A stretch of 26,378 nucleotides of DNA from positions 1 through 26,378 of the forward strand of contig CAZTOS010000001.1 in the NCBI GenBank assembly GCA_964615185.1. The letters are read 5' to 3'. A program made the translations under genes and the position numbers. Position 1 is the stretch's first letter. Every line of letters begins with the position of its first letter. This document shows positions 1 through 26,350 of the stretch, piece by piece. Below the pieces are notes generated by a model. It was not told the origin of the DNA, made no database searches, and worked only from the letters and a program-made list of their open reading frames with translations. Source of the stretch: an uncultured Thermococci archaeon (GTDB lineage: Archaea; Methanobacteriota_B; Thermococci; Thermococcales; Thermococcaceae).

Positions 1-155
1 TGCCTTGAAGGGCGAGCGGATTAACCCCTCGCCATGGGTGGGGAGGTTTGAGGGGCTTCATTAAAGTCCATCAAGATTTTCAGCCCCTCGGGGAGGGTCT
101 TCCCCCGGTTACCCCTACCTCCCGCTAAAACGGGAAGGCTCGGGGTTATCGTTCT
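1..155 (-). ncRNA. TnpB omegaRNA/reRNA scaffold (3' end and guide outside window)
   Basis: GC-rich hairpin series overlapping the tnpB 3' tail: ACCCC..GGGGT, AAGACC-loop hairpin, GAGGGGCT/AGCCCCTC, GGCGAG/CTCGCC. Colinear with 15820-15977, with compensatory changes. 5' boundary approximate. Confidence 0.75.
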
Positions 156-1307
156 CACAACTTCTTCAAAATGTTGAAAGCTCCAACTAAATCAGCGTTC
201 ATTACAACGCCCTCTCTGCGGCACTTAAACAAACCTCTAAAGATTCTACCATTCGAATGGCGTTGGCCGCAGAGAGGGCAGGTCTGAGAAGTGAAAGCCT
301 CATCAACAAGCAGGACTCGAATACCATACTCTTCCGCAACCTCAGTTAAACGTTTTATTACAGTGTTAAAACACCAAACGTGAGAAAGAATGAAGTTTTG
401 CTTTTTACCCTTATTAGGTTCTCTTGCAATTTCTTTAGGATACCCAACGACAATTCTGCTAACGCCCAACTGATAGAGCCTTTCAACAGTCCGCCTCACT
501 GCAGTGTTGATGTAGTGTTTTGCTTGGAGTTTAGCCTTTTCATGCATTCTCTTTAATTTCCTACTCTTTCTACAACCCGACTTGTTGAGTTTAGACTGGT
601 ATCCCGCTATCTTTTTCTGCCAGTAGAATGCAATGCTCTTTAGTGGCCTACCATTCACGAGGAGACTCTCACCATTCTCGACATAAACAGCCATTAAATT
701 GTTCACTCCCAAGTCAATACCAGCCGTGAGGTTTCCTTTCGGCTGTCTTGGAACTTTAACCCAACCATTTTTGGATAGTCTCTCTTCAACATTAAAACTA
801 ATGTGAGCATACCATTTCCGCTTTACATCGTCGTAAATAATTTCAAGCCTCCCCTGCTTGCCCTTCAAATGTATTCTGCCCTCGACTTAGCCTGCCGAAT
901 TTTCCAAGACGCTTCAACTCGATTACGTTGCCGTCAATTCTGTACTGGTCGTTCCTAAGCGGAATGATGAAGAGCTTTCTCCCATTCTCCTCCTTGACGA
1001 ATTTTGGTGGTTTTGGCTTGAACCAGGTGGGCAGTTTTTTCTTCCTGTTCAGGGAGAAGAATGAACGCCAGGCTTCAGCGTTCTTTCTAGCCAGTTGTTG
1101 GACTGTCGAGCCACCAACCCAGTCTTTTAAGGCGTAGTATGCTTCTTTTTCCGTGGTGGCAAAGTCCACTACTCCAAACTTTTTAAACTGCTTCAGCCTC
1201 TCGTAGTTGATTTTGTTCCAGATTGTGGCTGTGGCTTGGGCTAGTTCGAAGAGGGTTTTCTCTTGGGCTTTTGAGGGCTGGAGTTTGACTGTTGCAGAAC
1301 GCTTCAT
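21..1307 (-). pseudogene. tnpB: RNA-guided endonuclease TnpB, two frameshifts (~885 and ~160)
   Basis: ORFs 843-1307 and 155-868 join as ...FGRL/EGRIHLKGKQGRLEI. Motifs: RuvC-I GIDLG, VDEAFTSQTCPLC zinc finger, RuvC-III NADLVGAFNIL. Adding 1 nt at ~160 extends the frame (KKVVRTITPSL..GRGNRGKTLPEGL..MARG*) to TAA at 21-23. Confidence 0.9.
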
Positions 1308-1459
1308 TTCTTTTCCCGTTCGATTTTTTCAATCCAGAGTTTCATGGCCTCAGTTACCGCAACTCCCAGTGCCCCCCTAATCCGCCCATATTTCCCCACC
1401 ACGAGCTCCCTAAACCTTTTCTCAACTCTATCGTCAACGGAGACAGTTATTACTCCCAT
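1304..1459 (-). CDS. 51-aa ribbon-helix-helix (CopG/Arc-like) DNA-binding protein, not in the ORF track
   Basis: MGVITVSVDDRVEKRFRELVVGKYGRIRGALGVAVTEAMKLWIEKIEREKK*: alternating beta strand followed by two helices. RBS GGTGGGAG. Its TGA overlaps the tnpB ATG (ATGA). Confidence 0.85.
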   Translation of the reverse strand: MGVITVSVDDRVEKRFRELVVGKYGRIRGALGVAVTEAMKLWIEKIEREKK

Positions 1460-1470
1460 GCTCCCACCAT

Positions 1471-1506
1471 TAAGTATTAGTACAGCTTAGTATTTAAACC
1501 TTTCTC
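1471..1506 (-). promoter_or_regulatory. BRE/TATA promoter of the RHH-tnpB operon with three TACT(A/T)A direct repeats (candidate RHH operator)
   Basis: Minus strand GAGAAAGG-TTTAAATA, with TACTAA (1492-1487, overlapping the TATA end), TACTAA (1482-1477) and TACTTA (1476-1471). Confidence 0.55.
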
Positions 1507-1582
1507 TTGCTTTCCTGCTCAAAAACCAAATTTTCGAACACTGCACCCCACCCTAAAGGGCAAGGCTTGAAAAAAGAAAAGT

Positions 1583-1615: not shown

Positions 1616-1628
1616 GCTATTGAAATAT

Positions 1629-3337: not shown

Positions 3338-6174
3338 ATCTCGGCGTCATCTTCATCACTATCTTCTGAGGTCGCTAGGGCATCAAAGGTTAACGCAGTA
3401 GGAGTGCTTTCAGTTTCACTGTCGCTTAAAGCTTGGATTTCTCGCTCCTTTGCATCCTCATTCTGTTCCTTGAAGACAAAGACTGCTTCATATCTTACAC
3501 GTTTTCTTGCTGTTGCATTTTGTTTAACTGTAATATTTCCATTACTCGCTTCACTATCCGTGGACAGTACTTTAACATCTTCACTTGGAAGGTTCTGCAC
3601 CTGAACTTTAGCGTTTCTCTTGTTGATTACTAAGACCTTCCTCTCAGTTCCGTTTGGCAAAGCTAGGGTGAATAAAACTGCCTCTTCAGGCTTGGAATAC
3701 TGATAGAGCTTCCCTTTTTGATAATCTTTGACCTCTACACTCTCAATTCCATCCCATCCCCTAGCATCTGTGATGTTAACAATGCTTAAATCATAACCCA
3801 TGGCTTCAAGCTCATCGTAGTACTTGACGAATGGTTCAATGTCAGTGCTTGAGTCTAAATCACCACAGGAACCATCACCGCAACCGCTCAGATGACCATA
3901 GCCAAAGTAGACTCTGTGATCATTTGGATAATCATGGAAGCCCCACGTACCACTCTTTACAGAGAACATAACTTTAGCCATCTTGTCTTCCTCATCTGTC
4001 CCGCTTTCTGGAGATATATCGAGCATATCCCAAGACGACAGAGTATCTCTGTCAAAGAGCTTGAAGTAAATCCATATAAACTCAAAGTACTCTGGGATAT
4101 CAACTGTAAACTTGGCTATCTGCTGAAGCTCCATATTTACAAGCGTGTCGTTAGTTAGTATTATTGATTTCTCAGCATCATCCTGATTATCTGATATTGT
4201 AAAACTCTGCCATACAATGTTACCATGTCCGAGATTAGCTTCAATCTCCAAGGTCATGTCAGCTTTCTGATAATCAGCGGAAAGCCATTCATCAACTGGA
4301 TCGAGAACTCTTGCACGAAAGACATACACCGTTAATGTTAAGTTCCTTGTTAGTGGGTCCACATCTTTTGAATCTTTTATACCATCCCCATCAGTGTCCC
4401 ATTTATATGGGTCTGTCTTGTACTTTTCTATTTCTTCAATATCACACCAGCCATCAAAGTCAGTGTCCAGTTTAACAAGAACAGTCCTCTCTTCGGGTGT
4501 CCCAACGTTACCCCTCTCATCCACTGGGACAAACATAAATCTAAGCTCCTCGGTACAGTTGTTTATCACTGGATAATAATAGTAGCTTGCAGTTTCTTCA
4601 GAGGCAATTGGACCTATTGTGAACTTATACTCATCATTAACGTAGACTCTGACATATACCTCATCACTCTCCTCGTCGTACACCGTTACTGTCCCATCAA
4701 ATCTATACCCGGAATATGCTTCTTCAGGAATTGTTATGTTAGTTATTTTTGGAGGTAAGTTAGGTTTCACGTAGATTGTCTTCTTCCATGTATCTCTGAG
4801 TTCACTATCTTCCCAGAGCTCAATAGTGACATTGTGAGTTCCAGGTGTAGGATCCTTCCAAATTAGATAGAATTGATAACTTTGCTCAGGCAATACATAT
4901 CCCGAAAAGCTCCATTTTTGTTCATTATCAACTAACAGCTTTAGGGTAACATCCACTTTTTCAGAGGCAGGATTATTGACTAAAACATCAAATTTAATAT
5001 CCCTACCTTCAATAACTGGGGAAGGATAATTTACACTGGTTATGCTCACAGTGGGTACAGAAATCCAAGTAATTTCCGTTGACTCTTTCCCTCCTGAATA
5101 AGAAGGAATAAACTTTGCAACTACAACATGGGTGCCAGGCTCTGCAGTCCATGCATCATAGAAGCGGAAATACTTGATTGAGTATTTTTCCACATAAACA
5201 CTCTCACTTTTGAGTATCTCTCCATCTATAACAAGCTGAAGGGTTCCAGCGCCTCCCAATGCTCCTCTGTTATCAAGCTTTATTGTGAAATCTACTGGAG
5301 TTCCGGGAGAAGGTTTGCTTGGATAGTAATAGATATCCTCTACAGTTATCTCAGGAGAAGATGAATAATGGTATGTGCTAATAACGTTTCCCAGTGAATC
5401 AACTAAATACACAGTGTCTCCATCATTATTAAGGATAGCATCCTCCGGGCTTGAAGCAACTTTTACAATATATGTTCCAAATGGGGCAATTGTGCCATAA
5501 ACCCTGATTATGTGTTCTCTACCATAATATTCACATGAGTCTTTTGGTGTTCCATCATAGTTCCAACATTCGTTATTATTGTAGGCAAAGCTATCCATTA
5601 TGTACCAACCTGGAATATTCGCTGAGGAACTACTTGGATTGTAAAGGATTACATACTCGCCATTTCCATCATTTGTTAGATAATCGATGTCCTTTATCAC
5701 AACGCTGTAAGGTATTGATAAAGGAACAACTTGTAAATCCTTAGAAAGTTCTTTAATCTCGGAATCTGTAATATTGCCGTCTGTTTTTAACCTTTCTATA
5801 GTATGAAGAGCTTTTTCTGGATTTTTCCATTCATAATACCTGATTTTTATCGGGTTAGTGTTATTAAGATACCACAACTCAAACTTTAAGCCCTCACTAG
5901 TCCTTGTAATGTTTGTAATTTTCATGTTTTCTGAAACTACTATTGTTCCATTAATCATTTCCTTAATCATCAGTTCAAGTGCACTGAGAAGAACTTCTCT
6001 GTCTTCATATGTCAAGTTTTCTAATAACTCTAAGAGAGGAGCAAAAAAGGGATTTACTGTTTCGTCTCCTTGTACTTCGCTCTGATCTTTCTCCTGTTGT
6101 ATATCCGCCTGTGACAATGTGGAAGATATTAGTAAAACTAAGAGCAGCATTACTATAATAGATTTTCTCCTCAT
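3319..6174 (-). CDS. N-terminal part of a large secreted protein (signal peptide, lamin-tail-like domain, CARDB/Ig-like domains, Ca-binding repeats); probably frameshifted
   Basis: RBS GGAGGTG before ATG 6174. Signal MRRKSIIVMLLLVLLISS. LTD-like EYVILYN..GWYIMD..LNNDGDTVYL. CARDB-like beta repeats. DTDFDGWCD/DTDGDGIKD repeats. Confidence 0.8.
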   Translation of the reverse strand: MRRKSIIVMLLLVLLISSTLSQADIQQEKDQSEVQGDETVNPFFAPLLELLENLTYEDREVLLSALELMIKEMINGTIVVSENMKITNITRTSEGLKFELWYLNNTNPIKIRYYEWKNPEKALHTIERLKTDGNITDSEIKELSKDLQVVPLSIPYSVVIKDIDYLTNDGNGEYVILYNPSSSSANIPGWYIMDSFAYNNNECWNYDGTPKDSCEYYGREHIIRVYGTIAPFGTYIVKVASSPEDAILNNDGDTVYLVDSLGNVISTYHYSSSPEITVEDIYYYPSKPSPGTPVDFTIKLDNRGALGGAGTLQLVIDGEILKSESVYVEKYSIKYFRFYDAWTAEPGTHVVVAKFIPSYSGGKESTEITWISVPTVSITSVNYPSPVIEGRDIKFDVLVNNPASEKVDVTLKLLVDNEQKWSFSGYVLPEQSYQFYLIWKDPTPGTHNVTIELWEDSELRDTWKKTIYVKPNLPPKITNITIPEEAYSGYRFDGTVTVYDEESDEVYVRVYVNDEYKFTIGPIASEETASYYYYPVINNCTEELRFMFVPVDERGNVGTPEERTVLVKLDTDFDGWCDIEEIEKYKTDPYKWDTDGDGIKDSKDVDPLTRNLTLTVYVFRARVLDPVDEWLSADYQKADMTLEIEANLGHGNIVWQSFTISDNQDDAEKSIILTNDTLVNMELQQIAKFTVDIPEYFEFIWIYFKLFDRDTLSSWDMLDISPESGTDEEDKMAKVMFSVKSGTWGFHDYPNDHRVYFGYGHLSGCGDGSCGDLDSSTDIEPFVKYYDELEAMGYDLSIVNITDARGWDGIESVEVKDYQKGKLYQYSKPEEAVLFTLALPNGTERKVLVINKRNAKVQVQNLPSEDVKVLSTDSEASNGNITVKQNATARKRVRYEAVFVFKEQNEDAKEREIQALSDSETESTPTALTFDALATSEDSDEDDAEICSSSS

Positions 6175-6346
6175 GTACACACCTCCAACTTAAGTTTATA
6201 TAAACTATCTTGAATAGTTAGTTTTTAAAATTTATAATTTTTATTCTGCCATTATAAGTGGTACATAAAGGAACAAGAATAGAAAAATTAGGGCAAACTA
6301 ATAGTTTCTAGGATATTTTTATAGTTTATGTTATGCAAAGTTAGAT

Positions 6347-7390
6347 TTAAATCAACTCTCTCTCCATCTTTGTGAGCCTCTTAGCTCCATCTTTCGTTAT
6401 AACAACTGTATCCTCAATCCTGACGCCACCAAGCTTTGGAATGTAAATTCCTGGCTCAATCGTTATGACAATTCCTTCCCTGAGGACAGTCTCATCGTAC
6501 TGGCTTATTCTCGGAGGCTCATGAATTTCCAACCCAACCCCGTGACCGAGGCTGTGGATGAAGTAATCTCCATAGCCATATTCCGCTATGATGTCCCTTG
6601 CTATGCTGTCGAGTTCTTTCGCAGTCATTCCTGGCTTAGCTTTTTCAACAGCTGTCTTTTGAGCCTCAAGAACTATCTCATAAATCTCCTTCTGCTTCTC
6701 ATTGGGTTTTCCAATAACTATGGTTCTTGTTATGTCAGAATTGTAGTGCCTGTAAAGTGCTCCTAAATCTATGACAACTAAATCTCCTCTCTCAATCCTC
6801 TTATCGCTTGCAACTCCATGGGGGAGAGCTGACCTGTGACCGCTGGCAATGATTGTATCAAAGGCTGGCTTTTCAGCACCGTTCATCTTCATAACATACT
6901 CAACCTTTGCTGCTATTTCCCTTTCTCTCTTCCCTTCACTGATTTCTTCAATAGCCGCCATAACAGCCATGTCAGCCAATTCACACGCACTTTTGATTAT
7001 CTCGATTTCTTCTTTGGTTTTTACGATTCTAAGGTCTTTTATAACATCATCAATACTCCTAAATTCCTTTATCTCAGCTTTTTCTTTAAGTGCATTCATG
7101 AAGGAAAAGCTTGTTGAACCTTCAATTCCCAAAACACTATAAGGTTTGAGCTTTTCATAAAGTTCTGGCAGTTTCTTGAACTTTTCAACTGGTAGTTCAG
7201 TTTCTTCCCTTGTTGCCTCATATTCAAGTTCAGGAACGTAAATTATAGCCCCATCGGGAGTAACAACTAAATATCCCCCAGCTAACGGAGAAGCTCCAGA
7301 AAAGTAGAACAGGTTTTCACGTTTAGAGATGAGCGCTGCATCAATTGAGTTCTCGTTTATAAACTTTTGAAGCTTCTTTATTCTTTCCAT
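6347..7390 (-). CDS. pepQ: Xaa-Pro dipeptidase (prolidase, M24B)
   Basis: DLG..YNSDITRT, HSLGHGVGLEIHE, TIEPGIY and GVRIED metal motifs. RBS GGTGGTGATC favours ATG 7390 over the 7471 track start. Confidence 0.95.
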   Translation of the reverse strand: MERIKKLQKFINENSIDAALISKRENLFYFSGASPLAGGYLVVTPDGAIIYVPELEYEATREETELPVEKFKKLPELYEKLKPYSVLGIEGSTSFSFMNALKEKAEIKEFRSIDDVIKDLRIVKTKEEIEIIKSACELADMAVMAAIEEISEGKREREIAAKVEYVMKMNGAEKPAFDTIIASGHRSALPHGVASDKRIERGDLVVIDLGALYRHYNSDITRTIVIGKPNEKQKEIYEIVLEAQKTAVEKAKPGMTAKELDSIARDIIAEYGYGDYFIHSLGHGVGLEIHEPPRISQYDETVLREGIVITIEPGIYIPKLGGVRIEDTVVITKDGAKRLTKMERELI

Positions 7391-7514
7391 TTTCATGATC
7401 ACCACCAAAGCTGAATAGCTGAGGGAGGATAAAACTGTTTCTATTACCTGGTGCATTTTCATCAAGATCAATAAATTTAAAAGCTCTCTTCAATAGGCAT
7501 TAACGGTGAGAGCG

Positions 7515-7772
7515 ATGAAGGGGATAGTGTTAAGCTACATGAGGAGTAAGGAAAATCAGCACAACCACCACATGATTATCAAGCCTCTTGGAATTGAGAG
7601 CAGAGAAGAGGCAGCAAAGCTCATAGGAAAGAAAGTCATTTGGAAGAGCCCGAGCGGAAAAATCATTGCTGGCAAAATTATCAAGCCACATGGAGTTAGG
7701 GGCGAAGTTAAAGTAAGGTTTGAAAAAGGTTTACCCGGACAAGCTCTTGGGGATTACATCGAAATTCTCTGA
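7515..7772 (+). CDS. rpl35ae: 50S ribosomal protein L35Ae (eL33)
   Basis: [47 protein letters not shown] before ATG 7515. Confidence 0.95.
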
Positions 7773-7820
7773 TTTCTTTTCTTCCTAACCTAAGCTTTTT
7801 GTAAATAAATTGGTGGTACC

Positions 7821-8960
7821 ATGGAGCTGATAGAAATAAGTGAAGGAAAAGCAAGGGTTCTTGTTCCAAAAGCTGAACGTATTTATGATGCTCCAGTTTT
7901 TTACAACCCCATGATGGCTCTGAATAGGGATTTGAGCATCCTTCTCCTTAAGGTTGTTAAAGCGAAGAGAGTTTTAGATGCTCTAAGTGCTACAGGGATC
8001 AGGGGAATTAGGTATGCTTTAGAGACACCAGCAACTGAAGTTTGGATGAACGACATAAATCCAGATGCCTTTGAGCTGATAATTAAAAATCTGAGGCTCA
8101 ACTTCTCCGGTAAAATTGAGATACATGAGAAGAAAGCAATTTTAAAAGGGAACAAGGTTTTAGTTGCAACAAACTTAGATGTCAACAGATTAATGAATGA
8201 GCAGTTTAGGTATTTTGACTTCATTGATTTAGACCCCTTTGGTTCTCCAATGGAGTTCTTAGACTCTGCCTTGAGGAGTGTAAAGCGAAAAGGAGTTTTG
8301 GCAATCACTGCAACAGATACAGCACCCCTCTGCGGAGCTCATCCAAGGGCATGTCTAAGAAAATACAACACAGTGCCAATAAGGGGCGAGCTCTGCCATG
8401 AAGCTGGGCTGAGGATTTTAATAGGAACCGTTGCGAGATATGTTGCAAAGTATGATATGGGCTTTGAAGTTCTTTTTGCGTATTACAAAGACCATTACTT
8501 TAGGGCCTTCTTAAGGTTTAAAGGTGGAGCAAAGAAAGGAAATGAAACTTTAGAAAAGCTCGGTTATCTGTATTTTGATGAAAATAACGGAAAGTTTGAG
8601 ATTGAGAGAAGCTTTTTACCGAGTAAACCTAAAGCTTATGGACCTTTGTGGCTTGGGGAGCTTAAGAATCAAGAAATTGTTGAAGAGATGCATAAGCTAT
8701 TGGAGAAAGAAGAGATTGCAGAGAAAAAGAAAGTGCTGAAGTTTTTAGGAATAATCAAAGAGGAGCTTGACGTTCCATTTTTCTACGACACTCATGCATT
8801 AGCGAGGAGAAACAATCTTGAGGTTAGGAAAATTGCCAAAATCATCGAGATTCTTGAAAAAGAGGGCTACAAAGCAACGAGAACTCACTTCTCACCAACG
8901 GCTCTAAAGACAAATGCTCCTTTTGAGGAAGTGCTTGAGGCTTTAGAATCATTACAGTAA
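7821..8960 (+). CDS. trm1: tRNA (guanine(26)-N2)-dimethyltransferase Trm1
   Basis: [45 protein letters not shown] motifs. Confidence 0.96.
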
Positions 8961-9002
8961 CCTTAATTAAACCCTTTTGTTCAGCTTTTTAAGGGATGAA
9001 AG

Positions 9003-10097
9003 ATGAATGAGATGGTAAAGTCTGCTCTTCAATTCTACAGAGATGAATATTCAGACTCAGTTCTTTATGCTCAGCTTGCTAAGATTGAGAAAGACGAGGC
9101 TTTAAAGAATGAATTTCTAAGGCTTTCAAACATTGAGGCAAAGCATGCAAAGTTCTGGCACGATTTCTTGGCAAGGAGAGGCGTTAAAATATCTAAAGCA
9201 AAGGTTAGCAAGTTCTCGCTCTACAGCACAAGACTCCTAAGGAAAATTTTAGGGCCTGGTGCTGTTGCTTCGCTCCTTGAGATGGGAGAAAACAGTGCAA
9301 TCCAAAAGTACTTCAAATTCCTCACAACATATCAAGAGAAGCTCGATGAGGAAGAGAGAAGAGAGTTAAGTGAAGTCATCTTAGACGAGCTTGAACATGA
9401 GAAGTTCTTCTACGAGAGCAAGCAGAGGTTCCATGTTGAAAACATCCGAGATTTGGTTCTCGGTATGAATGATGGATTAGTTGAGATTCTTGGTGCAGTC
9501 ACTGGATTGTCAGCGGTTTACGTTTACAACCCAAAGCTTGTCGGAATTAGCGGTCTCATCGTTGGAGTTGCCGGGGCTTTATCAATGGCAATTGGGACTT
9601 TCATATCAGTCCGCTCTCAGAGACAAGTAAACGAGAGCATTAGACAAAGAATGGAAGTCCTGTTCAGGGTTTCCCCGGATAGAGCGAAAGATGAACTTTT
9701 AGACAAGCTCCTAGAAAGCGGAATGCCTGAGGAAGTTGCAAAAGAGGTTGCTGAGAAGCTTTCCTCAAATCACGATGCAATAATTAAGTTGCTCGTTCAA
9801 GAAGAGGACGAGAATGAGGTGAGGGCAGCACTATACACCGGAATTTCCTACCTCATTGGTGTAGCATTTCCAGTTACACCTTATTTCTTTGCGTCTTCAT
9901 CTCTAATTGCCCTGCCTTTCTCGGTGCTACTGGCTGGAACAGCACTGGGGGTAGTTGCGACTTTTATATCGGTACTCTCAGGAATCTCAATAAAGAAGAA
10001 AGTCACGGAGATGGTCACCACAGGATTAGGAGCCGCATTTGTTAGCTATCTCTTCGGAAGACTTATGGAGGCTCTATTCCACGTTTCAACACTCTAA
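9003..10097 (+). CDS. Rubrerythrin/ferritin-like domain fused to a VIT1/CCC1 transporter (MbfA-like)
   Basis: Two ExxH di-iron motifs (EAKH, ELEH), then IRDLVLGMNDGLVE and GALSMAIG VIT1 motifs and TM helices. Confidence 0.88.
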   Translation: MNEMVKSALQFYRDEYSDSVLYAQLAKIEKDEALKNEFLRLSNIEAKHAKFWHDFLARRGVKISKAKVSKFSLYSTRLLRKILGPGAVASLLEMGENSAIQKYFKFLTTYQEKLDEEERRELSEVILDELEHEKFFYESKQRFHVENIRDLVLGMNDGLVEILGAVTGLSAVYVYNPKLVGISGLIVGVAGALSMAIGTFISVRSQRQVNESIRQRMEVLFRVSPDRAKDELLDKLLESGMPEEVAKEVAEKLSSNHDAIIKLLVQEEDENEVRAALYTGISYLIGVAFPVTPYFFASSSLIALPFSVLLAGTALGVVATFISVLSGISIKKKVTEMVTTGLGAAFVSYLFGRLMEALFHVSTL

Positions 10098-10501
10098 AGG
10101 TAGAACACCACAATGCCAAGCTTTTCTGCAACTTTTCCCTGTTTTTCATCGCTGGTTGCTAACTTTCCATATTTGAGAGCCTGAGCGATGTAAAGAGAAT
10201 CATAAACGGTAACGTTATTCTCAAGGGCAATTTCTTCCGCCTTAGGCAAGTATTCAATCGGATTCTCATATATGATTATGCCTTTAGTTGAGTGAAGATA
10301 ACCAAGCAATTTCTCTGCCGTTTTGAGAGGAATATCTTGGTGAAGAACACAGCGCTTCCAAATCGCATTTGCGCCTTCAATCAATGCCATTTCTAAGGAA
10401 ACCAACTGATTCTGACGGAGGAACTTCGAAACGTCACGCCAGCCCTCTTCGCGAAGGAGGTATTTGATTAAAGACGAGGTGTCAATTACTATCACGGGCA
10501 T
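10094..10501 (-). CDS. vapC: PIN-domain toxin VapC
   Basis: VIDTSSL..E..NAIWK..VYDSLYIAQA..LATSD PIN acidic residues. Overlaps the antitoxin gene. Confidence 0.92.
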   Translation of the reverse strand: MPVIVIDTSSLIKYLLREEGWRDVSKFLRQNQLVSLEMALIEGANAIWKRCVLHQDIPLKTAEKLLGYLHSTKGIIIYENPIEYLPKAEEIALENNVTVYDSLYIAQALKYGKLATSDEKQGKVAEKLGIVVFYL

Positions 10502-10706
10502 CCCTCACAAGCTTCACTGCTTGTCCCTTTTTCATGGGAGGAACTTCCTTTTCGAGAAAAGCATCTATCTCATCAAGCAACTTTCTTTTTTCCTGCTCCC
10601 GTATTTTCATCTCAATAAACCTCCGTATCTCTTCGCTCCAGTTTATATTAACCTCCTTCATTTTCGCTTTAAGCTCATCGGGGATACGAATGCTGACAAC
10701 AGCCAT
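10482..10706 (-). CDS. vapB: RHH antitoxin VapB
   Basis: MAVVSIRIPDELKAKM..INWSEEIRRFI. RBS GGTGATG before ATG 10706. Lies upstream of vapC. Confidence 0.88.
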   Translation of the reverse strand: MAVVSIRIPDELKAKMKEVNINWSEEIRRFIEMKIREQEKRKLLDEIDAFLEKEVPPMKKGQAVKLVRDARDSN

Positions 10707-10715
10707 AACATCACC

Positions 10716-10745
10716 GTATATATAGGCGTCATACATACTTATAAA
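10716..10745 (-). promoter_or_regulatory. vapBC TATA box and inverted-repeat operator
   Basis: Minus-strand TTTATAA (10745-10739) directly followed by GTATGTAT-N7-ATATATAC (7/8 inverted repeat). Confidence 0.6.
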
Positions 10746-10752
10746 CATTGTG

Positions 10753-12117
10753 TCATACTTTTATGTACTTCCACTTCCCCCTCTTAAACACCCACCAGAA
10801 AAAGCCAGCGGTTGTGAATGTCTCAAGGCTCATTGCAATCCAAGCGGCAATAACTCCAAGCCCCTCAAAGCGGAATGAACCTATTGCAAATCCAAATCCC
10901 AAAAGATAGGCTGGGAGAATTCTAAAGAGCAATTTGCTAACAGCTGTTATATACATCGGACTTTTTGTATCTCCTGCACCTCTTAAAGCTCCGCTGAGAA
11001 CAAAAAGCCAGCCTAATGGAATTTCACTTATACCCACAATCATGAGATAGATTGCAGCCAAGTGAATAACTTGCCAATAATTGGGGTCGCTTTTTGTTAT
11101 GAAAGGTATGACAAGGTATTTTGGAAAAGCAATCAAAACCACAGCCATGACGCTCATGAAAGCCGTTACCATTTTCAGTGATTCATATACAACCTTCTCA
11201 GCTTTTTCTGGGTTTCCTTCACCTAAGCTCTGTCCAACCAAAGCTGATGTGGCAACATTAAAGCCAAAAGCTGGCATATAGGCTATGCTTTCAACCCTTA
11301 AGCCAACCTGATGAGCAGCTAAAGCTACTGTACCAAATCTTGTAACGATGCTTATGTAAATGAAGTTGTAAACGCTGAAGATTATTCTCTCAATCGTTGC
11401 TGGAATTCCAATTCTGAGGATTCTTTTAACCAGTGAAATATCAAATCTAAAGCTGGGTTTAAACTTCAAAACAAGCTTGTCACTTAAGAAGAGGAACATG
11501 CCAATAATAAACGCCGCTACAATTGAAAGTCCAGAAGCTAATGCAGCTCCCTTGACTTCTAATCTTGGAAAACCAAATTTTCCAAAAATTAAGAGATAGT
11601 TTAAAATAACATTCAGCACATTCATCAAAAGGCTTAACTTCATTGGCGTTTTTGTGTCACCAGCACCTCTTAAAGCTGAAAAAGCCGCAAAACCCATGAA
11701 GTTAATGGGATAAAATAAGAAGTATACCCTGATGTATTCGTAGCCCAGTCTAATTACGTCCTCACCAGCACCCATTACTCTAAGTGCATCATCCCCAAAG
11801 AATAAGCCAATTAACATAACAGGTATCCCAACAAGAAAGGCAAGATAAATCCCCTGCTCCAAAGTTTGATTTGCCATTTCGTAATCTTTAGCACCAACAA
11901 AACGAGCAACCAATGCTAAAACTCCAGTTGAGACTGCAAACATTATTGGCATCATGAACCATGAAAGCTGAGCTCCTAATCCCACGCTGGCAATCGCGAG
12001 AGCACCAAGCTGTCCGACCATTATCATGTCAACTAAGTTAACAAGGGTTTGAGAGATGTTTGCCAATATTGCCGGCCATGCAAGCTCCCATAACTTCTTC
12101 CTTAATTCGCCATCCAT
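10753..12117 (-). CDS. MATE family efflux transporter
   Basis: About 12 TMs, two LRGAGDTK(T/S)PM repeats, D in TM1 (LVDMIMVG). Start 12117 chosen from the GTGA RBS. Confidence 0.95.
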   Translation of the reverse strand: MDGELRKKLWELAWPAILANISQTLVNLVDMIMVGQLGALAIASVGLGAQLSWFMMPIMFAVSTGVLALVARFVGAKDYEMANQTLEQGIYLAFLVGIPVMLIGLFFGDDALRVMGAGEDVIRLGYEYIRVYFLFYPINFMGFAAFSALRGAGDTKTPMKLSLLMNVLNVILNYLLIFGKFGFPRLEVKGAALASGLSIVAAFIIGMFLFLSDKLVLKFKPSFRFDISLVKRILRIGIPATIERIIFSVYNFIYISIVTRFGTVALAAHQVGLRVESIAYMPAFGFNVATSALVGQSLGEGNPEKAEKVVYESLKMVTAFMSVMAVVLIAFPKYLVIPFITKSDPNYWQVIHLAAIYLMIVGISEIPLGWLFVLSGALRGAGDTKSPMYITAVSKLLFRILPAYLLGFGFAIGSFRFEGLGVIAAWIAMSLETFTTAGFFWWVFKRGKWKYIKV

Positions 12118-12163
12118 AGTAATCACTTAGATGAATGTCTAAGCGATAAAAGAGAAATAGAAG

Positions 12164-13168
12164 TTAAAAATCTTGCGATAAGAAGAGCTTTTCAAGATTG
12201 AATACTTTGAGACCAAATCGATTTAGCATTTCTTCAACTTGCTTTTTTGTAAGTCTGTAATCATAGACAAATCCTCCGAAGCTTTCCCTTACAAGTTTCT
12301 CCTCAAATCCCATAACCTCAACCATAAGCTCTATAGCTTGCCCTTTTCGTTTCTCCAGGTTTTCAGTATTCTCTTTGAATTTCTCTAAAAATTCATAGAA
12401 CAGGTTTTTGTTGAGATCCAAAAAGCTCAAATTAACTCCCAAAGCGCAGCAGGGATATTTCCCAAAATAATCAGAGTAATGGTAGACATTGAAGCCCTTC
12501 TTTTTAAGCAGACTTAGATACGGCTCCCAGATGCTTATCCCATCTATCTCTCCTCTAAGGAAAGACTCCACAGCATTTTCTGGATTTTTAAAGTATGTCA
12601 CTTTTATATTCTTCAATCCCTTTTTCTCAAGGAACAACTTTAGCATGGTTTCCATTGTAGAAAGCTCAGAAGAGGCAATGGTTTTTCCTTCCTTGAGCTC
12701 TCCTCTCACAACGAGTCCGCTACCAGAAAATCCACATCCAGAAACAACTTTAATGCTTTTCATCAACAATGCATAAAGGATTTGAGTAATTAACGGCGAG
12801 CACGCTAAATCAACCTTTCCTATTGCAAGAGCATTCGTAAGCTCAAGGGCTGAGTTGTAAACCAAAACTCTAACATTGTACTTTTCTTTTAAATCATGAG
12901 CCGCCAAAAGGGCATGAGGATATTCAACAGCCCTTAAAAGTCCGAGTCTAAGAGTGTTTTTAATGGGAAAGGGCGCCTCATCAATAATCCATATTCTGTA
13001 TGCTTTTTTCCCAATGTTTCTTTTTACAATAAGGTTCTCTTCTTCAAGACTTTCTAAGGCCTCAGCAATTGTCGAACGGGAATACCCCAACTCATACAGC
13101 TCACTTTGCAAAGCACCATCATGCCCCTTTGACTTTAAATAGCGCAAAATGTCATCTTTTGCACTCAT
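12164..13168 (-). CDS. Winged-HTH domain fused to an SsuA/NMT1-type substrate-binding domain
   Basis: N-terminal LQSELYELGYSRSTIAEALESLEEENLIVK wHTH. C-terminal GEIDGISIWEPY and YPCCAL typical of class II SBPs. No signal peptide. Confidence 0.75.
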   Translation of the reverse strand: MSAKDDILRYLKSKGHDGALQSELYELGYSRSTIAEALESLEEENLIVKRNIGKKAYRIWIIDEAPFPIKNTLRLGLLRAVEYPHALLAAHDLKEKYNVRVLVYNSALELTNALAIGKVDLACSPLITQILYALLMKSIKVVSGCGFSGSGLVVRGELKEGKTIASSELSTMETMLKLFLEKKGLKNIKVTYFKNPENAVESFLRGEIDGISIWEPYLSLLKKKGFNVYHYSDYFGKYPCCALGVNLSFLDLNKNLFYEFLEKFKENTENLEKRKGQAIELMVEVMGFEEKLVRESFGGFVYDYRLTKKQVEEMLNRFGLKVFNLEKLFLSQDF

Positions 13169-13249
13169 AGTTTAGAATTCAAAGCAAGGATTTATAGAGT
13201 TATCCCCCACACAGTTAACTTAGTACAGAAAAGCAAAATAAAAAAGAAA

Positions 13250-13438
13250 TCAATGGACGTTCTTAGCTTTCTTCCACTTCTTTGACCAGCTGTACTTCCT
13301 CAACCTTCTGCTCTTTCCAAAGCCACAGGCAGCACAGTAGCCCTTTCTAACATTGTAGGCTTTCTTCCCACATCTTCTGCACTTTATGTGAGTAGGAGTC
13401 CTATTTCTCTTTCCATGGGGCGCTGTTCCGCTTCCCAC
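13250..13438 (-). CDS. rpl37e: 50S ribosomal protein L37e (eL37)
   Basis: [18 protein letters not shown] zinc ribbon. Follows the Sm gene. Confidence 0.97.
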
Positions 13439-13449
13439 CGAGAATCACC

Positions 13450-13680
13450 TCACTCAGTTTCTACTGGTGAAATAGCCAACACATTGTCTCCTCTAATTAC
13501 AATCTTACCATACTTCTTTGTTACCTCGCCGCCCTCAATAAGCTGAGCATCTGCAAGGACAACATTCAGGTGAATGTCATAACCGATAAGCTTGCCTCTA
13601 AACTCGAATCCTTTCTTAAGTATAACCAACACATCCTTGTCCAGGGACCTGTGTATAACATCAAGTGGTCTTTCCGCCAT
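13450..13680 (-). CDS. Archaeal Sm/Lsm protein (SmAP1)
   Basis: Sm1 motif GKLIGYDIHLNVVL and Sm2 motif IVIRGDNV. Conserved Sm-L37e pair. Confidence 0.97.
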   Translation of the reverse strand: MAERPLDVIHRSLDKDVLVILKKGFEFRGKLIGYDIHLNVVLADAQLIEGGEVTKKYGKIVIRGDNVLAISPVETE

Positions 13681-13861
13681 TTCTCTTCCCTCCTAAATAA
13701 TCAAAGCTAAAGCTCACATTCATAACGGAAAAATTGGTTTATAACTCTTTCGTATCACAGCCCTAAAATGTTCTATTAGGCACCAACTTTGATAAAACAT
13801 CAAAGGATATTCCACAAAGTTTTTAGGATTTTGAAGTATCACACCTTAAGGTGGTGAAGGC

Positions 13862-15574
13862 ATGAAGATAGACAAGTATGAAATCCTTTCAGATTTGATG
13901 AGAAGAAGGGGCTTTGCATGGGGGAGCTTTGAAATTTATGGTGGAGCGAGAGGTTTTTACGATTACGGTCCTCTTGGAGCAACGATAAAGAGAAAGATTG
14001 AGCGTAAAATCAGAGAAGCCTTTCAGAGAGAGGGCTTTTTTGAGCTTGAAACCCCGGACATAACTCCTGAGGAAGTCTTCATAGCTTCAGGTCACGTTGA
14101 GAAGTTCGTTGATCCCTTAGTTGAGTGTACCAAGTGCCACGCAAGATACAGAGCAGACCATCTCATCGAGGAGAACTTGGACATTGATGTTGAAGGCTTG
14201 AGCGCTGAAGAGCTCACTAAGATAATAAGAGAAAATGGTATAAAATGCCCTCAGTGTGGCGGAGAGCTAAGCGATGTGTGGTATTTTAACTTGATGTTCG
14301 AGACGTATATCGGCCCTTACAAGGATAAGAAAGGGTATTTAAGGCCGGAAACTGCCCAAGGTATTTTTGTGAACTTTAAGAGGCTCAACGCATTTGCAAG
14401 AAACAAGCTCCCATTCGGCGTGTTCCAGATTGGAAAAGCATACAGAAATGAAATTTCACCAAGGCAAGGGATGATTAGACTTAGAGAGTTCACCCAGGCT
14501 GAGGTTGAAATATTCTTCAACCCAAAAGAGACCGAGCATCCACACTTTGATGAAGTCAAAGACGAGGTTGTAAGGCTCTACCCCATTGAACACCAGCTTA
14601 AGAACTTGGGGATGATTGAGATAACTCTTGAAGAAGCTGTTAAGAAAGGCTATGTCATGAACACATTTTTTGCCTACTACATGGCTATGGTGAAAGGAAT
14701 CCTTCTCGACATAGGCATTCCAGAAAAGGCAATACGATTTAGACAACAACTCCCGGAGGAAAGGGCACATTATTCAAGCGACACATGGGACGTTGAAATT
14801 TACAGCGAAAGATTTGGATGGATTGAGTGTGTTGGTATTGCATACAGAGGAGATTACGACTTGAGCAGACACATGAAGATGAGTGGTGCTGATTTGACAG
14901 TCATGATTCATTATGATGAGCCGAAGATTGTGAAAAAGCTTAAAGTAAGCCTAAATATGAAAAGAGTTGGTCCAAAGCTTAAGAAAGACGCAAAAAGAAT
15001 AAACGAGAAGCTCAAAGAAATGAGCGAAGAGGAACTCAAAAAACTTGTCAAGAGCTTAGAAGTAACTGGAAAGGCCATAATTGATGGGTATGAGCTTGAG
15101 AGGGAGGACTTTATAATCAAAGAAGTTGAAGAAAAGATAACAGGTGAAAAAATTGTCCCTCACGTCTTAGAGCCAAGTTTTGGTATTGACAGACCATTCT
15201 ATCTCCTCCTTGAGAACTCACTGACGATTGATGAGGACGGAAGAATTTACCTTAAGATAAAGAAGGACATGGCTCCAATAGAGGTCGCCGTTCTGCCATT
15301 AGTTGCAAAGGAGCCACTAATAACGATAGCCTACAACGTCTTTAGAACATTGCAAAAAGCTGGGTTCATAGCAGTTTATGATGAAAAAGATACAATTGGG
15401 AGGAGATATGCGAGATACGACGAAATTGGAACTCCATACTGTGTGACCATTGACAATCAAACACCGGAAGACAACACCGTAACAATCAGAGACAGAGATA
15501 CGAGGGAGCAGATTAGGGTCAAGATCGGCGAATTACCAGAGAAGCTGAAGGAGCTCATCTTTGGCTCCTCTTGA
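13862..15574 (+). CDS. glyS: Glycine--tRNA ligase (alpha2 type)
   Basis: LRPETAQGIF, YRNEISPRQGMIRLREFTQAE, EPSFGIDR, IGRRYARYDEIGTP. Confidence 0.98.
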   Translation: MKIDKYEILSDLMRRRGFAWGSFEIYGGARGFYDYGPLGATIKRKIERKIREAFQREGFFELETPDITPEEVFIASGHVEKFVDPLVECTKCHARYRADHLIEENLDIDVEGLSAEELTKIIRENGIKCPQCGGELSDVWYFNLMFETYIGPYKDKKGYLRPETAQGIFVNFKRLNAFARNKLPFGVFQIGKAYRNEISPRQGMIRLREFTQAEVEIFFNPKETEHPHFDEVKDEVVRLYPIEHQLKNLGMIEITLEEAVKKGYVMNTFFAYYMAMVKGILLDIGIPEKAIRFRQQLPEERAHYSSDTWDVEIYSERFGWIECVGIAYRGDYDLSRHMKMSGADLTVMIHYDEPKIVKKLKVSLNMKRVGPKLKKDAKRINEKLKEMSEEELKKLVKSLEVTGKAIIDGYELEREDFIIKEVEEKITGEKIVPHVLEPSFGIDRPFYLLLENSLTIDEDGRIYLKIKKDMAPIEVAVLPLVAKEPLITIAYNVFRTLQKAGFIAVYDEKDTIGRRYARYDEIGTPYCVTIDNQTPEDNTVTIRDRDTREQIRVKIGELPEKLKELIFGSS

Positions 15575-15575
15575 C

Positions 15576-15977
15576 TTTTCTTTTTCAAGCCTCGCCCTTT
15601 AGGCTGGGGGCACAGAACACCGCCCAATCAGTCTTTAAGCATCGAAACCCTTTTAACCTCTTGCAACGTAATAGGGCTTCGGAGAGGCCACCAAAGAGCA
15701 ACCCAATGAGACGAGGGGTTTCATCCGTGTCCCTCCCGTTGGGAGGGATAACGCTGTTAAGTATCCTTTCAAGACTGCTCACTCTGGCAGTCAAAAACTC
15801 CAATGGGTGGCCTTTGAGCGATAACCCCAATCCGCTCTGCGGTAGGGGTAACGGGCCGAAGACCCGGCCTGCGGGCTGAACCAAAACCGGCAACGGGAGT
15901 AGGAGATGATTGCCCGCAAACCTCCCCGTCATTAGCGAGGGAGTTAAGCCAAACCCTCGCAAAGGGGAGGAGGTCAG
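15576..15977 (+). mobile_element. 402-bp non-autonomous IS200/IS605 derivative lacking tnpA and tnpB
   Basis: Left end TGAC|TTTTCTTTTTCAAG-CCTCGCCC-TTTA-GGCTGGGG matches the element at 1584-1546. The 3' half is homologous to 1-155. Ends GGGGAGGAGGTCAG|. Confidence 0.88.
15643..15656 (+). promoter_or_regulatory. Internal BRE/TATA promoter of the mini-element RNA
   Basis: CGAAA-CCC-TTTTAA about 20 nt upstream of the first base-paired segment (15676). Confidence 0.55.
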
Positions 15978-15995
15978 TTTTCTCCAAATTATTCT
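15675..15995 (+). ncRNA. Stand-alone TnpB omegaRNA: extra 5' domain (15676-15819), scaffold (15820-15977), guide (from 15978)
   Basis: Stems: GGCCACC/GGTGGCC, ATGAGAC/GTTTCAT, TCCCTCCC/GGGAGGGA, GACTGC/GCAGTC, ACCCC/GGGGT, GGGCCG/CGGCCT, GCGGGC/GCCCGC, CCTCCCC/GGGGAGG, GCGAGGG/CCCTCGC. Ends are inferred. Confidence 0.72.
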
Positions 15996-16058
15996 TGCCA
16001 CAGTGAAAAGGACAACACCACTCAAGAAGCCAGAGAGATAAATTAATCCTGCATCCAT
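15978..16058 (-). CDS. Small single-pass membrane peptide gene interrupted by the mini-element (33 aa at the empty site; reads through to 157 aa here)
   Basis: RBS GGTGAG and TATA palindrome at 16107-16120. MDAGLIYLSGFLSGVVLFTVARIIWRK ends on a codon boundary at the element junction. The empty site adds VKRSQR*. Confidence 0.55.
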
Positions 16059-16140
16059 CTTTACTCACCATGCTTTATTAGGCTTCAATACTTCTGTGCA
16101 TGGCTGAGGTTTTTAAACCTAAAATGCTACATAAAATTAT

Positions 16141-16653
16141 ATGAACCAAAAGATCCACCTCATCTACAAGCGCATTCCAAACAGAGTCCTTGAAAGATAC
16201 GATGAACTCATAGCGAACTTAGGAGACATCATCGTTGCCAAATCCAGATTTTATGGAATGCTAACGCCTCTTTACGTAAATGGAGTTAAAGTAATTGAAA
16301 ACGGCTACACAATGATATACTTCGCCTTTATCGGCAGAAATTATGATGTTTTGAAAGTTTATGATGAGGAAGGGAATTTTAAAGGGTTCTACGTAGATGT
16401 TCTGGCATATACAAAGCGCTACAACAATACCTTAGAGATGCTCGACCTATTTTTAGACATATTCATCTTCCCAAACGGCGAAGCTTTCTTGTTAGATGAA
16501 GACGAGCTTGAAATGGCTCTCAATTATGGTCTAATCGACAAAGAGACCTTTGATTTCGCCTACAAAGTTGCAGATGAAATAATGAACGCTGTGAAGGAAA
16601 AGATGTTTCCTCCAAAAATCGTTTGGGAATATGGTATGGAGGGAAGAGAATGA
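16141..16653 (+). CDS. DUF402 family protein
   Basis: YDEEGNFKGFYVDV..MLDLFLDIFIFPNG..LLDEDELEMAL..GLID pattern. Probably leaderless (TATA about 24 nt upstream). Confidence 0.85.
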   Translation: MNQKIHLIYKRIPNRVLERYDELIANLGDIIVAKSRFYGMLTPLYVNGVKVIENGYTMIYFAFIGRNYDVLKVYDEEGNFKGFYVDVLAYTKRYNNTLEMLDLFLDIFIFPNGEAFLLDEDELEMALNYGLIDKETFDFAYKVADEIMNAVKEKMFPPKIVWEYGMEGRE

Positions 16654-26119: not shown

Positions 26120-26350
26120 ATGAAAACCTTCTTAAGGGGGATTCTCTACCGGGTTTTATGGGAATTCAATAAGGGGGTTAAGCCTTATTATCTTAGGGGC
26201 CTCCAATGGGAAGAAGAACTTCTTTTGCCTGGGAGTTATGTAGGACTCCCAAACCCTCATGTGAACCTCAGCTATAGGATTCTCCTATACATGACCAAGG
26301 GGTATATACTATATCAGGGGAATGGGGTGATTAAATGTTTGAAAATCTAA
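26120..26350 (+). CDS. Small CstA-associated protein, possibly degenerate
   Basis: RBS GAGGTGA. LLLPGSYVGLPNP..LSYRILLYM resembles, from memory, small proteins encoded after cstA. Confidence 0.5.
   Translation: MKTFLRGILYRVLWEFNKGVKPYYLRGLQWEEELLLPGSYVGLPNPHVNLSYRILLYMTKGYILYQGNGVIKCLKI

Follow-up and report, generated by a model that had tools for sequence, protein, structure and literature searches.

A 402-bp insertion directly follows glyS

Can a short segment of DNA that encodes no protein be a mobile element that relies on the transposase and nuclease of others? The question is raised by a locus of an uncultured archaeon of the Thermococcaceae, for which we analyzed a stretch of 26,378 nucleotides (hereafter the window; contig CAZTOS010000001.1 of assembly GCA_964615185.1). 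The list of open reading frames includes one of 570 amino acids on the forward strand (13862..15574), which we take to be glyS, a putative name retained from the first-pass annotation. Right behind this gene, and oriented like it, lies a protein-free mini-element of 402 bp (15576..15977, forward strand). The TGAC immediately before the mini-element (15572..15575) serves as target and transposon-adjacent motif (TAM), and its TGA is at the same time the stop codon of glyS.

The boundaries of the mini-element are set by empty sites and by alignments of the family. All seven other genomes of the same genus carry the empty-site junction CTCTTGAC|TTTTCTCCAAATTATTC, with the 3′ end of glyS (query positions 1–482) joined directly to the downstream DNA (query position 879 onwards). 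The identical empty junction is present on another contig of the window's own assembly (C27; the empty sites of C27 and the seven relatives can also be rendered CTCTTGAC|TTTTCTCC), and a contig from DNA run X1 skips exactly 402 bp. As TTTTCT occurs at both junctions, the cut may lie up to 6 nt further to the right. The empty site is scarless, there is no target-site duplication, and insertion is 3′ of TGAC, all as for IS200/IS605 elements; TGAC also immediately precedes 12 of the 14 type-A left ends in the genome. The mini-element is thus a discrete 402-bp insertion 3′ of TGAC, and removing it leaves a TAM followed by the guide target, as the first-pass annotation had proposed. The insertion at glyS is absent from 96/96 genomes of other species, none of the family's genomes having a match that runs into the right end there, and it is polymorphic: within one deep-sea vent population, both the filled and the empty allele are present. 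A second copy (C4:35557-35939) was considered for an empty-site comparison; its flanks are found in 7/7 relatives, but the intergenic DNA between them has diverged so far that no clean junction can be read.

The ends and the promoter are those of a resident transposon family

The left end of the mini-element contains a subterminal hairpin of type A (TTTTCTTTTTCAAGCCTCGCCCTTTAGGCTGGGG, 15576..15615, forward strand). Over the first 38–39 nt, TGAC included, it shows 92% identity to positions 1546–1584, the left end of a tnpB element at the start of the window, bearing out the earlier claim of a common left end, and it aligns with the left ends of both a tnpA-tnpB element (on contig C16) and elements in which a small ORF precedes tnpB. 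At the other side, 11/11 copies that reach the right end are alike through GGAGGAGGTCAG and have divergent flanks immediately after it in the alignment. Across the genome, 23 right ends finish in GGAGGAGGTCAG or a one-base variant, followed each time by a different flank, and the right-end profile also matches the tnpA-tnpB element (C16:13842-14021). Ends with subterminal hairpins common to an element with a Y1 (HUH) transposase are characteristic of PATEs and MITEs, as is a lack of protein-coding capacity. Among 32 copies no ORF is conserved, the longest stop-free stretches ranging from 57 to 115 codons in differing frames, and neither of the two ORFs that the window has within the mini-element matches Pfam, in agreement with the earlier statement that tnpB and RHH genes are missing from it.

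A BRE/TATA-like promoter (CGAAACCCTTTTAAAC, composed of CGAAA CC CTTTTAAC; 15643..15657, forward strand) had also been noted, and its core positions are at least 90% conserved in 32 copies from 25 genomes. Judged from spacing, transcription would start near 15674–15677. Full-length elements have a left-end promoter in front of tnpA or of the small ORF; the promoter here is its positional homologue, the left-end promoter kept from the parent insertion sequence.

Which proteins could serve such an element? The genome encodes one Y1 TnpA (C16:12302-12652; Y1_Tnp, E = 2.6e-41), adjoining an intact TnpB of 388 amino acids whose domains are OrfB_IS605 and TNB. This protein is one of several intact TnpBs outside the window, which also include the C56 type. 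A possible relative within the window, the small-ORF-tnpB element at 1..1580 on the reverse strand, has lost its right end at the contig start; its tnpB is frameshifted and split into two frames (843–1307 and 155–868, reverse strand), and it includes a 52-amino-acid ORF (1304–1462, reverse strand; from the ORF list). Because this ORF has no Pfam match at E values up to 0.01, its label "RHH" is by analogy with the systems described in PMC10691335. By eye, the TnpBs of this clade are missing the usual RuvC-II ExL motif and read IGYPK instead, and their clade is similar to the RHH/MazE-TnpB clade of archaea, for which PMC10691335 gives activity as a prediction only. Our search of the literature found no published assay of any member of this TnpB clade.

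The predicted RNA has a covarying fold and a domain of its own

The mini-element would encode an RNA of two parts. The 3′ part, the omegaRNA core and right end (15819..15977, forward strand), closes with a terminal hairpin ending GGGGAGGAGGTCAG and includes a K-turn-like stem, recognized by eye (GCGGGC-UGA ... AUGA..GCCCGC, 15871–15917, forward strand). These last ~160 nt are homologous, at ~70% identity, to the DNA just past the tnpB stop codon, and the profile of the 3′ domain also matches directly past the stop codon of eight tnpB copies. A scaffold at the right end that is homologous to the scaffold downstream of or overlapping tnpB, and is followed by a guide derived from the flank, is what defines an omegaRNA; the flanks of the copies diverge after GGTCAG, and the earlier reading of a full omegaRNA scaffold holds.

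The 5′ domain (15671..15817, forward strand), in which a closing stem GGCCACC/GGTGGCC surrounds four hairpins and a loop contains GAUGA, is found in mini-elements only. Its profile of 145 nt matches 18 loci in the genome, none of them a tnpB 3′ end, and nhmmer --max (E up to 10) matches the 145 nt before the core to none of the genome's tnpB 3′ ends. We also considered a coding origin for this domain; no TnpB C-terminal motif is visible by eye in its frames and nhmmer finds no similarity to tnpB 3′ ends, although a very old coding origin is still conceivable. Most likely, the 5′ domain stabilizes or matures the RNA or aids in competition for TnpB.

Compensatory changes on both sides occur in 34 of 83 base pairs, and 90.6% of the cells of these 83 pairs are paired. 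None of 500 shuffles attains any of the observed covariation measures, and slid controls are 36–52% paired. Both parts of the RNA contribute, with 14 pairs that show compensatory change in helices 1–5 (the 5′ domain) and covariation in helices 6–15 (the core). The copy in the window folds at −131 kcal/mol (z = −4.27), which, like the number of BLAST matches in the genome given below, goes beyond chance. The default RNAalifold consensus pairs the 5′ end of the RNA with the last bases before the guide; we leave this helix undecided, since its columns are invariant.

Mini-elements are an old, multicopy family

The genome contains approximately 18 copies (41 BLAST matches in the search for copies that the first-pass annotation had suggested along with the search for empty glyS alleles), and the family is present in 42 of 97 Thermococcaceae genomes and five of six genera; the 41 other carriers include isolates. 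Among the best 29 loci from other genomes, 28 are gene-less and measure 332–416 bp, the remaining one is without a recognizable right end, and none has a TnpB within 1.5 kb. TnpB is encoded in 39 of the 42 genomes with mini-elements versus 33 of the 55 without them, a comparison in which related genomes are not independent. The mini-elements form a family that is old, structured, and multicopy.

The would-be guide has its match in the empty allele, and the filled allele carries a diverged flank

If the RNA is a guide RNA, what would it target? The would-be guide (TTTTCTCCAAATTATTCTTG, 15978..15997, forward strand) is the right flank of the mini-element. Its sole perfect match following a TAM in the assembly is its own empty allele at C27:26400, preceded by CTCTTGAC. 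Searching with all 23 right-end flanks for targets in trans gave no perfect TAM-following match besides this empty allele; the other matches contain one or two mismatches, and among those inspected none follows TGAC or TTAC, the TAMs expected for type-A and type-B left ends, respectively. The flank begins with TTTT, which might terminate archaeal transcription before the guide is complete. As for expression, the six RNA runs each share at most 0.08 of sampled words, and two of them (X15 and X17) derive from relatives that are ~90% identical and in whose contigs the 402 bp are missing; with the site empty in these relatives, these two runs are uninformative on expression of the glyS copy.

The filled allele is linked to a diverged, "foreign" flank of ~500 bp (15978..16476, forward strand). 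Over this tract, identity is 87.7% with the nearest relative (G005) and 88% with the C27 allele, as against 95.6% between the C27 allele and G005; the DNA upstream and further downstream is 95–96% identical to G005. The first difference lies 38 bp past the right end. A search for the donor lineage of the tract gave a best match of 90%, to a genome with an empty site (G002), and no match began before the flank.

Discussion

Our analysis favors, with a probability of close to 0.8, a non-autonomous, gene-less IS200/IS605 element of the PATE/MITE type with a guide RNA that would work with TnpB supplied in trans. The mini-element keeps the left-end hairpin, the archaeal left-end promoter, an omegaRNA scaffold, and the right-end hairpin. 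TnpA would mobilize it as single-stranded DNA, and the promoter would yield an RNA of ~300 nt that runs past the right end into the flank. TnpB from another element could then bind this RNA and, once loaded, would cut the empty site, TGAC+TTTTCTCCAAATTATT, whether on a sister chromosome or on DNA entering the cell. What speaks for mobilization by TnpA in trans is the polymorphic insertion together with the many insertion sites. Since the core is only ~70% identical to any tnpB-linked core here, compatibility with a resident TnpB is an assumption. The first-pass annotation had offered two readings, an RNA-only element that borrows TnpB in trans and a domesticated trans-acting guide. The anatomy and the logic of a TAM followed by the guide target are right, and the first, extended to the borrowing of TnpA, is the best-supported reading; the novelty that it implied was overstated, as elements of this kind are already in print. 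The second is not supported: the guide is the flank, its only TAM-following match is its own empty allele, and the insertion, rather than occupying a fixed locus with another target, is polymorphic, missing from the 96 genomes, and replaced by an empty site in every relative of the same genus.

How does the mini-element compare with known systems? PATE-like minimal IS200/IS605 elements that encode omegaRNAs have been described (Meers et al., 2023; PMC10055086). As described there, PATEs are likewise gene-less, have ends like those of resident tnpB elements and an omegaRNA that extends across the right end, and need both TnpA and TnpB in trans, as we propose here. Unlike the PATEs in that account, the present family is archaeal, spans five genera, retains a BRE/TATA promoter in its left end, and has the additional covarying 5′ domain that is missing from tnpB-linked copies. 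Stand-alone omegaRNAs of OMEGA systems are reported to work in trans (Altae-Tran et al., 2021, as summarized in PMC10691335). They too are mobilized loci that have neither effector nor transposase, and the genomes concerned contain effector-bearing loci as well. Those omegaRNAs were tested biochemically, whereas the present family is described from sequence, and the TnpB clade differs: the one here is archaeal, has a small ORF linked to it, and is apparently rearranged in RuvC-II. With the RHH/MazE-TnpB clade, the resident tnpB elements have in common a small upstream ORF that overlaps the start of tnpB and a long 3′ untranslated stretch with the guide scaffold; PMC10691335 regards that clade as non-mobile and raises the possibility of a toxin-antitoxin pair, whereas the copies here occupy several sites, have ends common with a tnpA-tnpB element, and spawned mini-elements.

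Promoter-driven analogues are the Pyrococcus abyssi RNAs sRkB/sRkC and sRk48/sRk52, whose own BRE/TATA promoters, Northern blots, and mapped 5′ ends were reported in 2011 (Phok et al., 2011; PMC3124441). These too are repeated intergenic loci of Thermococcales, with transcripts that match the sense 3′ end of an orphan OrfB (TnpB), sequences that diverge past a fixed terminal motif, and K-turn/L7Ae sites, and they were not interpreted there as guide RNAs. Compared by eye, their terminal motifs (…CCAGAACGG and …GGAGGAAACGG) differ from the …GGAGGAGGTCAG found here, so they belong to other TnpB/omegaRNA families. Rfam has no match anywhere in the window at gathering level. Below it, HgcC (RF00062) gives a weak full-length match (15.7 bits against a gathering threshold of 50; E = 0.11–0.41), the sole sensible one, and its consensus ends in the same GAGGAGGUCAG; five other E-value-level matches are noise. 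The HgcC consensus ends GgGGAGGAGGUCAG and then has a variable tail, like the right end here, both it and the omegaRNA core contain a GGC…GACC…GCC hairpin, and the UUCA "RE-like tetraloop" reported for HgcC (PMC4615843) corresponds to the …CCCTTCAGGG… hairpin of many mini-element copies. The HgcC model spans only the 3′ core; its relation to the mini-element is one of terminal motif only, and we do not count the mini-element as a member. The HgcC RNAs are likely to be TnpB guide RNAs, and so are the Pyrococcus sRk RNAs, which are RNAs of this kind.

A bolder version, which we regard as rather unlikely, is that mini-elements are a self-standing lineage of RNA-only guide parasites whose private 5′ domain of 145 nt, absent from every tnpB-linked omegaRNA, captures the TnpB of others, and that the glyS copy may have been caught homing. 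Three observations suggest homing: the population contains both alleles, filled and empty; the empty allele includes an exact match to the guide; and the element would have come with a one-sided foreign tract that begins where the cut would fall, the kind of trace expected if a break had set off gene conversion with a diverged donor.

It is rather unlikely that the mini-element is an inert relic, once mobile and now decaying without effective transcription or use of TnpB. No copy in the genome is more than 86% identical to that in the window, which gives no sign of a recent burst, and the neighboring tnpB is frameshifted. Orthologous copies are conserved no better than their flanks (92% versus 92–94% for one pair, 88.5% versus 98.5% for another). 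Two near-complete genomes, G015 (98%) and G011 (99%), contain mini-element matches and no TnpB at E values up to 1e-20, and so copies can persist without the nuclease. However, plain decay would erase a promoter and helices that have been kept, the latter by compensatory change, across 25 genomes and five genera; moreover, intact TnpA and TnpB are present, and the insertion is polymorphic in a living population.

We consider it improbable that the host uses the transcript as an L7Ae-bound regulatory or scaffolding RNA, independent of DNA cutting. Such a role would fit the conserved 5′ domain that tnpB-linked copies are missing and the K-turn-like motifs seen by eye, and has precedents in two studies: L7Ae binds the P. 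abyssi analogues, which build up late in growth (PMC3124441), and Halobacterium salinarum grew better when an RNA derived from a PATE was overexpressed (PMC4615843). It sits poorly with copies at differing, mostly non-orthologous sites, each with its own 3′ flank, with a glyS copy missing from the 96 other species' genomes and from part of its own population, and with the finding of no second target for any guide. Finally, a recent internal deletion of the 1–1580 tnpB element or a sister would account for the common left end, right end, and core and for the position of the promoter, but it is very improbable given the 5′ domain unmatched in any tnpB copy of the genome, the recurrent ~400-bp architecture with no TnpB nearby, and the ~70% identity of the core, from which it follows that any deletion is ancient, that mini-elements have since been a lineage of their own, and that the annotation was right to doubt a simple deletion.

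What, then, does the gene-less, TnpB-borrowing element add? Gene-less elements that carry an omegaRNA are a kind already described (Altae-Tran et al., 2021, 2023; Meers et al., 2023), as are promoter-driven analogues in P. abyssi (Phok et al., 2011), and the mini-element family reveals no new principle. Two features are new: the 5′ domain private to the mini-elements, and the presence side by side of a filled and an empty allele, with a foreign tract of 500 bp that begins at the insertion. Gene-less, guide-only elements test the modularity of TnpB systems, with transposase, nuclease, and guide on separate pieces of DNA, and this family is an archaeal, hyperthermophilic example with a clear promoter. 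Its large natural alignment defines the fold of the RNA, and the role of the 5′ domain is open to deletion tests. The filled and empty alleles, the perfect guide match, and the foreign flank together make the glyS locus a natural case for the model in which the empty site is cut and the element is copied back. If homing did take place, the locus would provide evidence, from a natural population, that TnpB can drive the spread of a gene-less element from one lineage to another.

Results

The mini-element, a 402-bp gene-less insertion (15576-15977), lies directly after a 570-aa ORF (13862-15574) that, following the first-pass annotation, we take to be glyS. All features described in that annotation were present when the sequence was read directly: TGAC (15572-15575), the TGA of which serves as the stop codon of the ORF; a left end with a T-rich start followed by a hairpin-forming stretch; a BRE/TATA-like promoter block, CGAAACCCTTTTAAC (15643-15657); a G+C-rich interior; and the right-end terminus GGGGAGGAGGTCAG (15964-15977), after which the flank reads TTTTCTCCAAATTATTC. 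Over its first 38-39 nt, the mini-element shares 92% identity with the reverse complement of the neighbouring minus-strand tnpB element at 1-1580. When 15100-16500 was used as a query against eight genomes of the genus, both flanks abutted without an insert in 7/7 other same-genus genomes, which sets the insert at 402 bp, with a 6-nt ambiguity because TTTTCT occurs at both junctions. The empty-site junctions consist of CTCTTGAC joined to TTTTCTCCAAATTATTC, with small variations; a further empty glyS allele lies on C27, a contig of the window's own assembly. Junction comparison with the same-genus empty sites revealed no target duplication.

The intergenic stretch 15998-16075 (containing CTTGCCACAGTGAAAAGGACAACACCACTCAAGAAGCCAGAGAGATAAATTAATCC) is, for non-coding DNA, well conserved across the genus, and a small minus-strand gene or RNA may lie within it. 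Two long minus-strand ORFs (15585-16058 and 15769-16071) run into the mini-element and were rejected as artefacts of the insertion.

A search for further copies revealed a family rather than a one-off. The genome contains 41 BLAST matches to the mini-element; 14 copies were aligned, and the 11 that reach the right end are alike up to GGAGGAGGTCAG and diverge directly after it. Using domain profiles built from 32 copies, we found the 5′ domain (145 nt; 15671-15817) at 18 genome loci, while the 3′ domain profile matched those mini-elements as well as the DNA that directly follows the stop codon in 8 tnpB copies. Each of the 23 right ends in the genome has a different flank. There are two left-end types: type A, found in the glyS copy and in tnpB elements with a small upstream ORF, is preceded by TGAC in 12/14 cases, and type B by TTAC in 8/16 (read by eye). 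Also present are two micro-elements of ~35-45 nt (C32:14420-14453 and C6:35765-35798), each consisting of a left-end-like start joined directly to the right-end hairpin ending GGAGGAGGTCAG; one is preceded by TTACA, and both resemble PATEs of this family reduced to the bare hairpin.

At the level of the taxonomic family, a 191-nt promoter-plus-5′-domain query matched 42/97 family genomes in 5/6 genera. Of the 29 best loci in other genomes, each from a different genome, 28 allowed a right end to be placed, giving elements of 332-416 bp; the exception, L172, has no recognisable right end, and TnpB was found within 1.5 kb of none of the 29. Orthologous mini-elements at L169 (G018) and L173 (G015) have the same flanks and guide and are only 88.5% identical, the flanks being 98.5-98.7% identical between the two species, a pattern suggesting that a different copy replaced or converted one of them.

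On named contigs, the right-end pattern occurs in Thermococcus/Thermococcaceae and also in Desulfurococcales, Ignisphaera, Archaeoglobi and Sulfolobales. A same-strand TnpB match was found at 19/54 right-end loci with at least 1400 nt upstream and at none of the other 35, which include a probable chance hit in Rhodanobacter and one locus with a weak opposite-strand match only. Some crenarchaeal loci hold mini-elements of ~290 bp that have a left-end hairpin and an AAAGCTTATAAAT promoter. Four gene-less examples of ~290 bp on Desulfurococcaceae/Desulfurococcales MAG contigs (L095, L119, L074 and L078) have the right end and omegaRNA core in common, and each carries the hairpin, the AAAGCTTATAAAT promoter and box C/D-like GATGA motifs.

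Consensus structures were computed for the two domains separately with RIBOSUM-weighted alifold and pairs were then counted on the 32-copy alignment. The fold has 83 pairs in 15 helices, with 90.6% of cells paired and both-side changes in 34 pairs, covering 141 cells; 0/500 shuffles reached any of the five measures. Sliding the partner by 1-3 columns left only 36-52% paired, a comparison that favours the actual structure since it was derived from the alignment on which it was counted. Helices 1-5 (the 5′ domain) covary, as do helices 6-15 (the core; 15819-15977), and the window's copy folds at -131 kcal/mol (z = -4.27).

The promoter had been described as the mini-element's own. A BRE/TATA block is indeed conserved (at least 90% at its core across 32 copies from 25 genomes), but in the left-end alignment it occupies the position of the tnpA or small-ORF promoter of full-length elements and is thus the parent's left-end promoter, kept after gene loss. 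Since a profile search of the genome found no counterpart of the 5′ domain in tnpB 3′ ends, and no reading frame is conserved among mini-element copies, the mini-elements are, by these sequence criteria, an old lineage of their own rather than a recent deletion product of the neighbouring element (1-1580), in line with the first-pass view that the interior is no simple deletion of that element.

Discussion

If the mini-element encodes only a guide RNA, what could supply the proteins? The genome has one Y1 transposase (C16:12302-12652), adjoined by a TnpB of 388 aa that is intact and carries OrfB_IS605 and TNB domains. Among several further tnpB copies, those on C42 and C56, like that on C16, are in one frame; the copy on C1, the window's contig (155-1307, minus strand), is broken across two overlapping frames (843-1307 and 155-868), and the C27 copy is frameshifted in the same way. 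By eye, the TnpBs at C16:12673-13836 and C56:235-1392 have IGYPK at the usual RuvC-II 'ExL' strand, followed by DEAFTS, an arrangement that may correspond to the catalytic-site rearrangement described in archaeal TnpBs of the RHH/MazE-TnpB clade. TnpB (E up to 1e-20) was detected in 39/42 genomes with the mini-element versus 33/55 without, the exceptions being G003 (75% complete), G011 (99%) and G015 (98%); since related genomes are non-independent, this co-occurrence counts as a tendency and not as a test.

Of 23 right-end flanks, only that of the glyS copy, its would-be guide, has a perfect match elsewhere in the assembly; the match lies on C27, in the empty allele, and follows CTCTTGAC. That the sole match is the element's own empty allele argues against a domesticated trans-acting guide, a suggestion that thus went unsupported, and fits a self-homing logic. 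The best reading is that the mini-element would borrow TnpB, a concept already in print.

Filled and empty forms coexist in one community. C27:10841-26405 corresponds to C1:21-15581, with all 61 differences within C1:36-287 and the 15.3 kb of C1:288-15581 identical. Beyond the site, identity between C27 and C1:15978-16476 drops to 88-89%, and the last 55 bases of C27 equal C1:16477-16531. Since this is the sole long duplicate in the assembly, and contig ends overlap by 55 bases, C1 and C27 are two paths through one assembly graph, that is, two haplotypes in the sequenced DNA. In X1, a hydrothermal-vent metagenome run and the DNA run that matched the stretch best (0.90 of the words), contigs cover both mini-element junctions, one contig has the exact 402-bp skip (its shorter side only 24 nt), and 16033-16462 has two variants at depths of 25.5 and 14.1. 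The coexistence applies to the community as a whole, and short reads leave the variants unphased over the shared 15.3 kb.

The compared haplotypes (1-16531 versus C27:10841-26964) differ at both ends. C1:36-287 comprises the tnpB 3′ end and right end, past which the DNA is wholly different (C114 versus C27:1-10806); at the other end are the filled/empty site and the diverged 500 bp. IS copies in the vent population thus appear to have been sites of recombination or rearrangement. An exact 55-nt direct repeat (26324-26378 and C1:26479-26533, 155 bp apart) lies at the very end of the window.

Over 500 bp downstream, the empty allele is 95.6% identical to the nearest relative, G005, matching its surroundings (96.4% upstream, 95.2% further downstream), whereas the filled allele shares only 87.7% identity with G005 and 88% with C27, with differences beginning 38 bp past the right end. 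Since no closer flank was found among the family's species genomes (best 90%), none of which has a mini-element at this site, a more distant, unsampled lineage appears to have contributed the mini-element and ~500 bp of its flank through recombination. On its left, the tract stops at the insertion, and break-initiated conversion at the empty site could have produced this one-sidedness. The same picture would result if a crossover fell within a copy already present, or if the 402-bp heterology had halted a conversion tract. As the reading rests on a composite assembly, we regard the tract as an unexplained lead that does not count as evidence for homing.

Parts of this picture have precedents. 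Meers et al. (PMC10055086) report gene-less PATE-like IS200/IS605 elements and describe PATEs as often encoding omegaRNAs that need TnpB in trans, and stand-alone omegaRNAs are noted as mobilised and functional in trans (Altae-Tran et al., via PMC10691335). In P. abyssi, Phok et al. (2011; PMC3124441) showed that intergenic repeats with similarity to OrfB 3′ ends give rise, from promoters, to processed RNAs that bind L7Ae; by eye, their alignments have the same layout as the mini-elements but other terminal motifs. Such RNAs, PATEs and HgcC were linked by Gomes-Filho et al. (PMC4615843). The Rfam HgcC consensus and the mini-element right end both terminate in GAGGAGGUCAG, although the Rfam HgcC score is far below threshold. 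In the open literature we found no paper on this particular Thermococcaceae family. New here are a well-defined family of Thermococcaceae mini-elements whose 5′ RNA domain is private to them, and a natural filled/empty polymorphism that has a suggestive flank tract.
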